Positions 4,876 through 52,448 of a DNA stretch of 64,000 nucleotides are shown in pieces (positions within the stretch are counted from its first letter, which is position 1; each line of letters starts with the position of its first letter). Source of the DNA: an uncultured Alphaproteobacteria bacterium (GTDB lineage: Bacteria > Pseudomonadota > Alphaproteobacteria > Rs-D84); NCBI GenBank assembly GCA_944389465.1, contig CALXML010000006.1, forward strand, positions 13 through 64,012, read 5' to 3'. A model generated the notes under the pieces. The model had not been told where the DNA came from. It worked only from the letters and a program-made list of their open reading frames with translations, and made no database searches. The position numbers and the translations under genes were made by a program.

Positions 4876-5078
4876 TGTGAACTCTCCTTGTGTTTGGGTA
4901 AAACAAAAACCACCGAAATTAAGGTGGTTGGAGGTTCATAGCTATATCAGGTATAGTGTGCTTATTCTATATATTCGCAGCCCTCCAACCCAAAACAGTT
5001 GGAGCATTTTTACATCTTGATTTGATGCCTGAAAACGGGCTATGACACCCCATCAATGGAACACCCATTGACAAAATA
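4876..5078 (-). promoter_or_regulatory. conserved structured 5' leader (copy 1) with intrinsic terminator
   Basis: Aligns block-wise with 51630-51866. Hairpin 5053-5071, hairpin 4983-5004, terminator ACCACC-N8-GGTGGTTTTT at 4905-4928 (minus-strand sense). See findings. Confidence 0.55.
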
Positions 5079-5107
5079 ATTCTACAGCACGCGCCCATAT
5101 AATGCAA
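5079..5107 (-). promoter_or_regulatory. sigma70-like promoter of the Cys-rich operon
   Basis: TTGCAT (5107-5102) - 17 nt - TAGAAT (5084-5079) on the minus strand. Positionally equivalent to TTGCTT-17-TAACAT at 51601-51629. Confidence 0.5.
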
Positions 5108-30311: not shown

Positions 30312-30563
30312 TTATTGCCGCCCATTATCACGTGGGAAATAGTCCGCAAAATCGCGCCAACTGGTATTGGTCGCATTCATTATTTTTACTAAACTGCCAA
30401 CAGACATCCAATGTGGTTTTCCATCATTACCGATACGTTTACTTTTGTTTAATGCAGTTAAATCTAAACCACTTATTTGTGCCAATCTGGAACAAGAAAT
30501 ATTGTGTGCTTCTGCTAAATTATCTATTGCTCTCCAAAACATATAATTGGTCAGTTTTTTCAT
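30312..30563 (-). CDS. small helix-turn-helix DNA-binding protein
   Basis: 83 aa from ATG 30563 (RBS AAGGGGGA). The segment NISCSRLAQISGLDLTALNKSKR is HTH-like. Confidence 0.5.
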   Translation of the reverse strand: MKKLTNYMFWRAIDNLAEAHNISCSRLAQISGLDLTALNKSKRIGNDGKPHWMSVGSLVKIMNATNTSWRDFADYFPRDNGRQ

Positions 30564-30664
30564 CGTATCCCCCTTACCGGCCTTTGTATGTACGAACATA
30601 TTCTAATTATGATTGTATTCTGGTATAAAATCAATTGCTTTTTGTAGGAAAACATTCGTAATAA

Positions 30665-30727
30665 ATTTGTACAAAACACGTACAAAAAACTGCATAAAAA
30701 AGCATACAAAAAGTGCACAAAAAAATC
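30665..30727. repeat. five phased A-tracts (GTACAAAA / GCATAAAAA, about 11 bp period)
   Basis: Motif starts at about 30668, 30679, 30690, 30702 and 30713. Same motif style as 14317-14390. Confidence 0.6.
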
Positions 30728-30749
30728 CCGCCAGTATACATGGCGGGAT
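30718..30749 (-). terminator. terminator downstream of fabI
   Basis: ATCCCGCC-N9-GGCGGGAT with a T-run on the minus strand. Confidence 0.65.
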
Positions 30750-30768
30750 GATTTTTTATACGGTTAAA

Positions 30769-31590
30769 TTATTGCTTGTTTTGTTCATCCAAACCCTTTA
30801 ACAGAACTTCTTTCAAATCGTTTGGAATCATACCAGTTGTTGAATAACCGCAATCTACGTGATGGATTTCACCGGTTACTGCGCTGGACAGATTGCTGAA
30901 CAAATAAATGGCCGCGCCAGAAACGTCATCTAATGTCATATTGCGACGCAGCGGTGTTTGTTCCGCATTTAAACGCAACATAGATTTCATACCGCCAACA
31001 CCGGACGATGCCAATGTCATAATAGGACCCGCGCTGATTGCGTTAATACGAATGTTATCGCGTCCCAAATCAGATGCCAAATAGCGTACACTGCTGTCCA
31101 ATGCTGATTTTGCAACACCCATTACATTGTAATTTGGAACAGATTTTTCACCACCGTAATAGGTCAGGGTAACAATACTGCCGCCGTCTGTCATTAATTT
31201 AGATGCGCGACGTGTCAAATCAACCAATGAATACACAGATACGTCCATGGTGTTTTTAAAATTGGCACGCGTTGTATCGGCATAGCGACCCTGTAATTCG
31301 TTTTTATCAGAAAACGCAATCGCGTGTAACATACCGTCTAATTTGCCCCATTCACGTTCAATATTTTCAAACAAAGAATCCAACTGTTCATCGTTTTGAA
31401 CATTGCATTCCTGAACGAACTTTGCCCCAATGGATTCAGCCAATGGGCGTACACGTTTTTCCAAATTAGGCATTGCATAAGGCATTGCGATTTCAGCACC
31501 TTCTTCGTGTGCACGGCGTGCAATAGCCCAAGCCATAGACCAATCATTTGCCACGCCAGTAATTAAAATCTTTTTTCCTTTTAATAACAT
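30769..31590 (-). CDS. fabI: enoyl-ACP reductase (NADH)
   Basis: 273 aa, SDR fold, GVANDWSMAW N-terminus, YNVMGVAKSAL catalytic Tyr/Lys segment. Confidence 0.9.
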   Translation of the reverse strand: MLLKGKKILITGVANDWSMAWAIARRAHEEGAEIAMPYAMPNLEKRVRPLAESIGAKFVQECNVQNDEQLDSLFENIEREWGKLDGMLHAIAFSDKNELQGRYADTTRANFKNTMDVSVYSLVDLTRRASKLMTDGGSIVTLTYYGGEKSVPNYNVMGVAKSALDSSVRYLASDLGRDNIRINAISAGPIMTLASSGVGGMKSMLRLNAEQTPLRRNMTLDDVSGAAIYLFSNLSSAVTGEIHHVDCGYSTTGMIPNDLKEVLLKGLDEQNKQ

Positions 31591-51600: not shown

Positions 51601-51629
51601 TTGCTTTGCGGTACGATGCAGGATAACAT
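51601..51629 (+). promoter_or_regulatory. sigma70-like promoter of the Cys-rich gene
   Basis: TTGCTT - 17 nt - TAACAT, in the same position relative to the leader as at 5079-5107. Confidence 0.45.
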
Positions 51630-51866
51630 AATTTATGTTGATGGGTGTTCCGTCAATGGGGTGTGAGAACCCGTGCATACGCGTCGGAATATTGGGACGG
51701 TGCGGTTGTGCCGACCGTGTGGTATTACGACGAAAAATAAACTCCTGATATTTGGTCAGGAGGGTCGTGAATATAAAATAAGCGACACAATTCGTATGAT
51801 TGTTCTCAACCTCCTGACCACCAAGTTTTTGGTGGTTTTTCGTTAAGAAAAAACAGGAGTTTGAAA
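51630..51866 (+). promoter_or_regulatory. conserved structured 5' leader (copy 2) with intrinsic terminator
   Basis: Hairpin 51638-51656, hairpin 51742-51762, terminator ACCACC-N8-GGTGGTTTTT at 51817-51840. Confidence 0.55.
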
Positions 51867-52448
51867 ATGAAAAAAACATTATATATAGCACCGCTTATTG
51901 CGGGCTTGTGCAACAGTGCTGTTGCTTGGACGGCTGGTCAACAGTGTGCCGCCGATTATGATATGTCCACATATTATCAATGCGATTGCCCAATAGAAGA
52001 CAGATTGGCCAGTGGCTGGATTGTTGGGCCGTGTGATTCTTATGAACAAATCTGGTGTTATGATACGAATGGCGTTTGTGCCGGTGACGGTGGCGAGGGT
52101 GCATGTGGGGTATGCCACTGCACAGATTCTGTTGGTGATTGGGAAAAAATGACAGACCCGTTTATCGGCGAATTTATGCAACGCGTTATCACGACGTACA
52201 GTCATTCAGATAATTATTATATATGCAAGGCATCCACCCAGCGTGAAAAAGCATGTTTGGCTGGGTATTATAAATCTGGTACTTCTGGATTAAACTGTCG
52301 CTTGTGTCCGTCATTTAATGGTGTGGCCGGCGCATCAGATATTGGTGCCACCAGCATAACAGATTGTTATATAGCATCCGGCACAATATTGTCAGATACC
52401 ACCGGAACGTACACATATACACGTGATTGTTATTACAGTAACCAGTAA
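51867..52448 (+). CDS. secreted Cys-rich protein (193 aa)
   Basis: ATG at 51867 lies 7 nt after AGGAG. Signal peptide MKKTLYIAPLIAGLCNSAVA and 19 Cys. GYYKSGTSGLNCRLCP and the C-terminal TGTYTYTRDC motifs are shared with 4127-4408. Confidence 0.65.
   Translation: MKKTLYIAPLIAGLCNSAVAWTAGQQCAADYDMSTYYQCDCPIEDRLASGWIVGPCDSYEQIWCYDTNGVCAGDGGEGACGVCHCTDSVGDWEKMTDPFIGEFMQRVITTYSHSDNYYICKASTQREKACLAGYYKSGTSGLNCRLCPSFNGVAGASDIGATSITDCYIASGTILSDTTGTYTYTRDCYYSNQ

Follow-up and report, generated by a model that had tools for sequence, protein, structure and literature searches.

Why should two genes that encode unrelated proteins be preceded by nearly the same stretch of DNA? This question is raised by 64 kb of contig CALXML010000006.1 (referred to here, at its full length, as the window), from an uncultured alphaproteobacterium of the order Rs-D84, in which two genes for Cys-rich proteins with signal peptides each follow such a region, copy A on the minus strand and copy B on the plus strand. 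The original prediction, made from the window alone, held that these regions form a conserved structured leader with a promoter, two hairpins and an intrinsic terminator, that covariation between the two copies suggests a functional RNA, and that this RNA is not a known riboswitch class. We find that both regions are members of a family of cis-acting leader RNAs that is specific to Rs-D84 (Candidatus Enterousia and its relatives), with the same architecture present in more than 118 loci of other genomes. The two look-alike regions align block by block, with 76% column identity and a 36-nucleotide (nt) insertion in copy B, and the coding regions that follow are unrelated. The promoters, both hairpins (P1 and P5 in the nomenclature used below), the conserved blocks and the terminator all have the sequences originally described. 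That first description was incomplete, not wrong: absent from it were four of the helices, the two pseudoknots, the alternative antiterminator pairing, how large the family is and what kind of regulon it has.

The family was collected with a degenerate pattern for the core comprising the 3′ arm of P5 and P6, derived from six copies and scanned over one genome per GTDB species. This pattern demanded GGAGGG, GYGAAUAU and AAUAA, and covariation was tested for helices outside it. At least 118 DNA stretches match the pattern, nhmmer finds at least 141 leader copies above 40 bits (115 of them non-redundant at <90% identity), and a covariance model yields 118 matches with scores of 39–161 bits in 0.8 Mb from 100 sources; the copies are only about 50–75% identical to one another. 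In the window, the 25-nt core pattern matches only copies A and B, where 100 shuffles give an expectation of 0, and both nhmmer --max and the covariance model run with its filters off return exactly two leader copies, one at 5074-4904 (−) with 143.7 bits (E 2e-35) for copy A and the other at 51635-51841 (+) with 119 bits (E 5e-29) for copy B. A third match of the covariance model, at 30722-30881 (−) with 19 bits, was rejected as a false positive, since it covers the 3′ end of a FabI-like gene together with its terminator. It lies just upstream of a 95-aa XRE-like helix-turn-helix (HTH) gene at 30312-30599 (−) that has no leader.

Among the pattern matches listed, all but two are located in metagenome-assembled genomes labelled Enterousia, Alphaproteobacteria, 'Rickettsiales' or proteobacterium, together with one contig binned as Muribaculaceae; the two off-clade matches, in Methanothrix and Marinococcus, correspond roughly to chance expectation. 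The Muribaculaceae-binned contig (Bacteroidota; locus L019, 4057-4210) is 4.5 kb long and carries a leader with an XRE gene, and it is most likely a mis-binned piece of an Rs-D84 genome rather than a case of horizontal transfer. The samples originate from cattle, sheep, goat, deer, buffalo, chicken, rabbit, mouse, human and termite gut. Lower bounds for the number of copies per genome are at least 7 in JAWPOC01 and at least 4–5 in several others, with 2 in the 64 kb of the window. Homologues of the downstream proteins are named Candidatus Enterousia, a member of the uncultured alphaproteobacterial order Rs-D84 that lives in the gut, has genomes mostly below 1 Mb without a TCA cycle or respiration (PMC12306168), and, like Rs-D84 in general, is probably dependent on a partner (PMC12306168).

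The claim that the leader is not a known riboswitch class is borne out by scans with the 4227 covariance models of Rfam 15, made both at gathering thresholds and with the cut-off relaxed to E≤10. At gathering thresholds only two tRNAs pass in the window, and only tRNA and transfer-messenger RNA pass in 18 other loci, which together contain more than 22 copies of the leader, whereas at E≤10 each of the window leaders gives only noise of 13–19 bits, compared with cut-offs of 37–100 bits. Collections of phages and plasmids contain no similar DNA, so an origin of the leader in either was rejected. A search of full-text literature found no link of Enterousia or Rs-D84 to a riboswitch, and the conserved 15-mer and 17-mer were in no paper found. 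The leader is an RNA class with a new fold, an unusual regulon and a familiar control logic, of which we found no description in Rfam 15 or in the searchable literature.

The family promoter has the consensus TTGaaT-N17-(TG)TATAAT and is of the sigma-70 type, with TTG at one fixed position in 68 of 114 copies and TANNNT in 86 of 114. The end of the −10 box is separated by 6–7 nt from the first G of P1, and since this distance is fixed, the RNA should start at P1, in agreement with the earlier proposal that transcription begins upstream of the structure. The boundary originally placed at 5107 belongs to the −35 box, and the RNA most likely starts at about 5072.

The sensor domain, ~140–210 nt in length, is composed of hairpins P1, P2, P4 (optional), P5, P6 and P7 and of two interleaved pseudoknots. 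In pseudoknot PK1, the strand located just 3′ of P2 pairs with the loop of P7. In PK2, the 8-nt loop of P2 (U-G-U-N-N-N-A-R) pairs with the linker just 3′ of P7, and this linker, which leads to AACCUCC, is exactly 5 nt long in 112 of 113 copies. P4 is missing from short copies, is lengthened in long ones such as copy B, and is followed by an A-rich joiner. P5 occurs in two main types, CUCCAAC/GUUGGAG or CUCCUGA/UCAGGAG, and P6 closes a conserved 15-nt loop, GAAUA-UAUUG-AAUAA. In two copies (L109, 459-639, and L102, 1293-1482) a GC-rich hairpin is inserted between GAAUA and AAUAA, so that these two segments constitute an internal-loop motif whose cap varies. Two blocks originally described as conserved indeed are, with a structural role that had not been recognized: TGGGGTGT.A.A.CCCGT is hairpin P2, the loop of which forms PK2, and GAATATA..AATAAGC.ACAC is the loop and 3′ arm of hairpin P6. 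The stretch left uninterpreted at that time contains P7 and strands of the two pseudoknots. The highly conserved unpaired nucleotides are the UG of the P2 loop, the GAAUA/AAUAA loop, and the GG and CAC joiners. PK1, P7 and PK2 have 3′ strands that follow one another without a spacer, and P2 directly adjoins PK2; from this we infer a long coaxial stack, PK1–P7–PK2, from which P4, P5 and P6 would branch off.

The fold is carried by covariation, first detected between two copies and now found to be massive among the homologues. Since MAFFT applied to mixed length classes misaligns PK1 (49–59% paired), such alignments were replaced by length-homogeneous sets, position-only tests and the covariance model. 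In A3, a structure-blind MAFFT alignment of 40 sequences, 89.9% of the cells are paired, compared to 79.3% in shuffles, with 173 double-change cells versus 56.7; none of 500 shuffles reaches the observed values, and slid controls are 34–63% paired. In A5, a structure-blind MAFFT alignment of 20 sequences, all seven pairs of PK1 change on both sides, with 86.8% paired, and P1 is 97.9% paired. PK2 on A3 is 99.2% paired, with 77 double-change cells versus 20.9, a covariation score of 0.82 versus 0.24, and slid controls 25–59% paired. In tests by position only, 108 of 115 copies form five or more consecutive pairs in PK1 (6.5 on average), versus 9.4% in a cross-sequence control, and 106 of 113 copies form all five core pairs of PK2, with 27 different complementary versions among them, versus 8.3% in a cross-copy control. 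An unsupervised scan of mutual information with average product correction places PK2, P1, PK1, P4, P7 and the terminator among its top pairs and finds no other long-range pair. In the model-fitted alignment of 118 copies, which leans towards the structure, 94.9% of the cells are paired versus 71.2% in shuffles, with 1448 double-change cells versus 445, and 45 of 52 pairs change on both sides. The terminator stem also covaries in this alignment, with A-U replaced by G-C in 35 copies and C-G by U-A in 13. As in riboswitches, a conserved structured sensor that covaries is located in the 5′ untranslated region (UTR).

A coding leader peptide was considered and rejected, as insertions and deletions are frequently not multiples of a triplet, the compensatory changes follow the stems, and the GUG after GGAGGG is usually GCG. 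The seven copies in JAWPOC01 (L038, L044, L055, L059, L071 and L117) carry seven different PK1 sequences, and their PK2 sequences are also diverse; this diversity within a genome could be due to neutral compensatory drift or to selection against cross-pairing of the copies.

The sensor is followed by an expression platform, which in copy A consists, in order, of A139-A140, CCUCC with the following bases (141-149), the terminator, the U run, ~20 nt, the Shine-Dalgarno (SD) sequence and AUG (the numbering of the RNA of copy A starts with nt 1 at window position 5074). A GC-containing hairpin with a U run, as expected of an intrinsic terminator, is seen in both copies (AACCACC-N8-GGUGGUU-U5 in A and GACCACC-N8-GGUGGUU-U5 in B). 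In copy A the stem ends ~21 nt before the SD sequence, closer than the 25–35 nt before the ribosome-binding site stated in the original prediction. Throughout the family, 111 of 115 copies have a hairpin of at least 5 base pairs (bp) immediately after CCUCC, and ~82 of these have a tail of at least six U. The median distance from the end of the terminator to the start codon is 32 nt, and a downstream start codon with an SD sequence is present in 88 of the 111 copies scored.

An alternative pairing connects this platform with the sensor. A MAFFT-based count of it was flat due to a 1-nt register shift between the two types of P5, and a per-sequence analysis was used instead, according to which the 3′ arm of P5 (…GGAGG) can form 9–12 consecutive pairs with the CCUCC… strand in 109 of 113 copies. 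This antiterminator strand extends at least 4 nt into the 5′ arm of the terminator, and its pairing therefore excludes both P5 and the terminator, so that mutually exclusive structures overlap the sensor, as in riboswitches. The complementarity tracks the type of P5 (UGACC/GGUCA, AACC/GGUU and, rarely, AGCC/GGCU or UGCC/GGCA). In 82 leaders, the median local energies are −19.1 kcal/mol for the antiterminator, −11.3 kcal/mol for the P5 hairpin and −10.5 kcal/mol for the terminator. In 99% of these leaders P5 alone is less stable than the antiterminator, and the two global states are nearly iso-energetic, with a median difference of +2.8 kcal/mol. When the full 5′ UTR is folded with RNAfold, CCUCC pairs with the SD sequence of the gene. 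The relay is written in SD and anti-SD sequences (CUCC, GGAGG, CCUCC and the GGAG of the gene) and could gate both transcription and translation.

The 5′ arm of P2 (GGGG, GAGG or GGAG; nt 24-28 of copy A, 5051-5047) is also complementary to the anti-SD CCUC (nt 140-144, 4935-4931). RNAfold merges this pairing with PK2 into one 12-bp closing helix, and position 29/140 changes from G/A to C/G in 9 leaders, which makes the 5′ arm of P2 a possible third competitor for the anti-SD strand.

These elements suggest the following course of events. Transcription would begin at P1, and the first ~140–210 nt would fold into the compact sensor. With the signal present, the sensor would be fully folded and P5 closed, allowing the terminator to form, while in any RNA resulting from read-through the free CCUCC would mask the SD sequence, so that the gene would be OFF. 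With the signal absent, the more stable antiterminator would replace P5, leading to read-through with a free SD sequence, and the gene would be ON. The decision would fall at the point where the CCUCC strand is already made and the 3′ arm of the terminator is not; there the antiterminator would be expected to prevail, except where the folded core keeps P5 locked. Since the antiterminator is more stable than P5, and the 3′ arm of the terminator would not yet exist at this point, an OFF switch is favoured, and the direction of switching is probably OFF.

The genes behind the leader are diverse, comprising more than 30 unrelated protein types. Among 105 distinct downstream proteins, 66 have a signal-peptide-like N terminus (52 of these also with at least 4 Cys), about 20–25 are of the XRE-type HTH, most of them about 70–115 aa long, and a few contain a domain of the Ephrin_rec_like, Flg_new, PKD or OMP beta-barrel type; no enzyme of a recognisable pathway and no transporter is found among them. 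Short leaders lacking P4 are located mainly before HTH genes and long ones mainly before genes of secreted proteins, and some copies in other species precede an unrelated XRE-type gene. The small HTH protein at L133 resembles only HipB, and weakly. A tie of the leader to one protein family was rejected, since neither the closest homologues of protein A (L001 and L014) nor a more remote homologue of protein B (L012) has such a leader. These genes are preceded instead by a short leader (L001 2700-3000, L014 2700-3000 and L012 900-1136) that contains a GCCGAA…TTCGGC hairpin and may be another conserved element.

We consider it probable, at a modest level of confidence, that the leader is a signal-responsive attenuator acting in cis, with a small molecule as its most likely reader; for the small molecule taken by itself, the probability falls slightly short of even. 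Several observations weigh against it. A regulon without enzymes or transporters is atypical for metabolite riboswitches, and the gene context offers no candidate ligand. The conservation of GGAGGG, GAAUAU and AAUAA is partly a matter of ascertainment, since these bases were required by the scan with which the family was collected. The covariation of P5 with the antiterminator is dominated by two sequence types that are linked to a difference in P7 and represent largely two lineages, which limits independent support for the antiterminator to the rare variants AGCC/GGCU and UGCC/GGCA. Whole-leader RNAfold favours the terminator conformer over a forced antiterminator by 12–15 kcal/mol, a comparison that is biased because the nested model drops the pseudoknots once the antiterminator is forced. 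Finally, copies with their own promoter and terminator but with no downstream open reading frame (ORF) would also fit the role of a small RNA (sRNA).

Among the alternatives, the one that survives best, although we regard it as unlikely, retains the same RNA and platform and has the sensor read by a macromolecule, such as an RNA-binding protein, a tRNA or another RNA, in which case the leader would resemble T-box, LicT/RAT, ANTAR, PyrR or ribosomal-protein leaders. A regulon of surface proteins and regulators with no metabolic genes would suit such a reader, and the many copies per small genome suggest one global factor, which orphan copies could titrate; the terminator conformer is also the minimum-free-energy state in nested folding, as in factor-dependent antitermination. 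On the other hand, a large core with two pseudoknots and conserved unpaired nucleotides looks more like a ligand pocket than a protein site, which is a weak argument, and no T-box, ANTAR or RAT match appears in the Rfam scans at E≤10. Further, the 15-nt loop of P6 has no conserved complementary partner in 1.03 Mb of related DNA, and no candidate gene for an RNA-binding protein is linked to the copies.

A fixed attenuator would need neither two pseudoknots nor a conserved, nearly iso-energetic antiterminator of 9–12 bp, and switching is also favoured by the bistable design and by the strong purifying selection to which about 45 base pairs are subject. It is thus quite improbable that the leader is a structured 5′ UTR without a sensing function, which would determine the stability or processing of the mRNA or hold the surface-protein genes at a fixed level of attenuation, although the ligand or factor is so far without a candidate, and the terminator together with masking of the SD sequence could give constitutive low expression.

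The remaining alternatives draw on the arrangement of certain copies. Tandem leaders, in which every unit has a promoter and a terminator of its own, are found at L068 (735-913 and 992-1167) and L089 (2339-2519, 2562-2731 and 2838-3024); the upstream ones have no ORF behind them and are orphans, which could be sRNAs, decoys or remnants. At L002 (2798-3003), L003 (2798-3003) and L004 (2803-3003), one gene block, encoding a 140-aa secreted protein, a protein of 92 aa, DUF3419 and a protein of 996 aa, follows a different upstream neighbourhood in each of three samples, and the breakpoints fall within the leader. In L004 the 5′ half of an HTH-type sensor is joined at the conserved AACCUCC platform, and in L003 the P2 loop no longer matches its own PK2 linker; these leaders are either dispersed repeats serving for recombination or assembly chimeras. 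We can speculate, with little conviction, that the leaders mediate a choice among the large repertoire of Cys-rich surface proteins of a genome-reduced symbiont, that is, surface or antigenic variation by RNA-RNA cross-talk or by leader-mediated exchange of cassettes, a proposal based on the per-copy 'barcodes' of PK1, the orphan leaders and the leaders at rearrangement breakpoints. That the leader is the gene of a trans-acting sRNA of ~170 nt, with the downstream expression being incidental read-through, seems highly improbable: the orphan and tandem copies without an ORF (L068 735-913; L089) and the promoter and terminator present on every copy are in its favour, but most copies are in a fixed orientation at the short distance from a start codon with an SD sequence given above, the anti-SD element and the antiterminator would be meaningful only in cis, and the search for complements of the P6 loop revealed no conserved trans target in 1.03 Mb. 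A DNA-level feature (dispersed repeat, promoter cassette or recombination site) is hardly credible despite the many copies per genome and the gene block that follows different upstream contexts with breakpoints in the leader, since copies that are about 50–75% identical keep their pairing by compensatory changes, including those in long-range non-palindromic pairs, a pattern explained only by selection on a single-stranded transcript, and since the leader has no terminal repeats or target duplications and matches no phage or plasmid collection.

The features of the two copies in the window are collected in Table 1. Gene A is followed by a second, small ORF, and because a pair of genes encoding ~140 aa and then ~92 aa recurs in L002–L005, the leader of copy A probably controls a two-gene operon. 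Protein A has 264 homologues, which are small, Cys-rich and secreted, with no Pfam domain. Its AlphaFold model, with a predicted local distance difference test score of about 90 in the core, contains a beta-sheet and two C-terminal helices and has no fold match in the PDB at E<1.

Table 1. Features of the two leader copies and of the genes that follow them (window positions; RNA numbering of copy A)
Feature	Position (strand)	Details	Basis or RNA numbering
Copy A promoter	5079..5107 (-)	-35 TTGCAT 5107-5102, 17-nt spacer, -10 TAGAAT 5084-5079	read from sequence
Copy A predicted transcription start	~5072 (-)		promoter position
Copy A sensor (aptamer-like) domain	4936..5072 (-)		covariance model 143.7 bits, helix covariation
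Copy A P1	5072-5065 with 5059-5052 (-)		RNA 3-10 with 16-23
Copy A P2	5051-5048 with 5039-5036 (-)		RNA 24-27 with 36-39
Copy A PK2	5045-5040 with 4941-4936 (-)		RNA 30-35 (P2 loop) with 134-139
Copy A PK1	5032-5028 with 4951-4947 (-)		RNA 43-47 (just 3′ of P2) with 124-128 (P7 loop)
Copy A P4	5027-5024 with 5016-5013 (-)		RNA 48-51 with 59-62
Copy A P5	5004-4998 with 4989-4983 (-)		RNA 71-77 with 86-92
Copy A P6	4981-4977 with 4961-4957 (-)	loop GAAUAUAUAGAAUAA 4976-4962	RNA 94-98 with 114-118
Copy A P7	4956-4952 with 4946-4942 (-)		RNA 119-123 with 129-133
Copy A expression platform	4904..4934 (-)		
Copy A anti-SD / antiterminator 3′ strand	4934-4926 (-)	CCUCCAACC; alternative partner GGUUGGAGG 4990-4982	
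Copy A terminator stem	4929-4923 with 4914-4908 (-)	U run 4909-4905	RNA 146-152 with 161-167
Copy A Shine-Dalgarno	4889-4884 (-)	AAGGAG; start codon 4875-4873	
Gene A	4875-4423 (-)	150-aa signal-peptide, Cys-rich protein	
Second ORF after gene A	~4407-4127 (-)	93 aa; small, signal-peptide, Cys-rich; CPSGY/CPTGY motifs	
Copy B promoter	51601..51629 (+)	-35 TTGCTT 51601-51606, 17-nt spacer, -10 TAACAT 51624-51629	
Copy B sensor domain	51637..51808 (+)		covariance model 119 bits
Copy B P1	51637-51644 with 51650-51657 (+)		
Copy B P2	51658-51661 with 51670-51673 (+)		
Copy B PK2	51664-51669 with 51803-51808 (+)		
Copy B PK1	51676-51681 with 51793-51798 (+)		
Copy B extended P4	51682-51705 with 51711-51732 (+)		
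Copy B P5	51742-51748 with 51756-51762 (+)		
Copy B P6	51764-51768 with 51782-51786 (+)		
Copy B P7	51788-51791 with 51799-51802 (+)		
Copy B expression platform	51810..51840 (+)	CCUCCUGACC 51810-51819; alternative partner GGUCAGGAGG 51754-51763	
Copy B terminator	51816-51822 with 51831-51837 (+)	U run 51836-51840	
Copy B Shine-Dalgarno	51854-51859 (+)	CAGGAG	
Gene B	51867-52448 (+)	193-aa signal-peptide, Cys-rich protein; weak Ephrin_rec_like match	

Almost nothing has so far been known about regulation in Rs-D84. One RNA design, present in several to many copies per genome, precedes a large part of the secreted and surface proteins of these bacteria and of their small XRE regulators, and for this reason it is probably a master control of how the cell presents itself to its host or partner. 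The identity of the signal would provide a direct handle on what these unculturable bacteria sense. The leader is a well-supported new class of structured RNA that has over 100 diverse representatives, contains two pseudoknots and includes a clear expression platform, and it is ready for a ligand search, for structure determination and for use as a compact genetic switch.

Comparison of the leader with known regulatory RNAs reveals partial similarities to several of them. Like the T-box, it is a long structured leader deciding between a terminator and an antiterminator, but it has no Stem I, specifier or T-box match, RF00230 is not detected at E≤10, and the regulon of 105 downstream proteins includes no aminoacyl-tRNA synthetase or amino-acid genes. 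P2 and PK2 together have the classical H-type topology of the SAM-II and preQ1-II riboswitches, with zero nt between the stems, and two pseudoknots lock a compact core as in the glmS, HDV-like and twister ribozymes. The leader differs from all of these by its much larger size, its separate expression platform and the lack of an Rfam match, and from the ribozymes in that there is no evidence of self-cleavage. The riboswitches for cyclic di-GMP (c-di-GMP; GEMM-I, RF01051, and c-di-GMP-II, RF01786) and for cyclic di-AMP (ydaO, RF00379) occur in many copies per genome before diverse surface, secreted and regulatory genes, and second-messenger riboswitches come to mind for a regulon of this kind. 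These riboswitches, like the leader, combine pseudoknotted aptamers with terminators, whereas the leader has no cmscan match to them even at E≤10. In tblastn searches of the same 1.03 Mb of related DNA (about one genome-equivalent, and a biased one), consensus GGDEF, EAL, HD-GYP, PilZ, DAC and RelA/SpoT queries found nothing; this is weak evidence, and for the first four, which bear on a c-di-GMP riboswitch, it is suggestive only.

In turn, the SAM-I, FMN and Mg2+ M-box OFF riboswitches, which terminate transcription through a relay of anti-antiterminator, antiterminator and terminator, differ from the leader in that the latter has no Rfam match and contains two interleaved pseudoknots, that its regulon consists of surface and secreted proteins and XRE regulators and not of a metabolic pathway, and that its relay is built from SD and anti-SD sequences. 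Nevertheless, the leader shares with them a multi-helix sensor at the 5′ end of the mRNA, a helix of this sensor (here P5) that has a strand in common with the antiterminator, which in turn has a strand in common with the terminator, and alternative states that are nearly iso-energetic.

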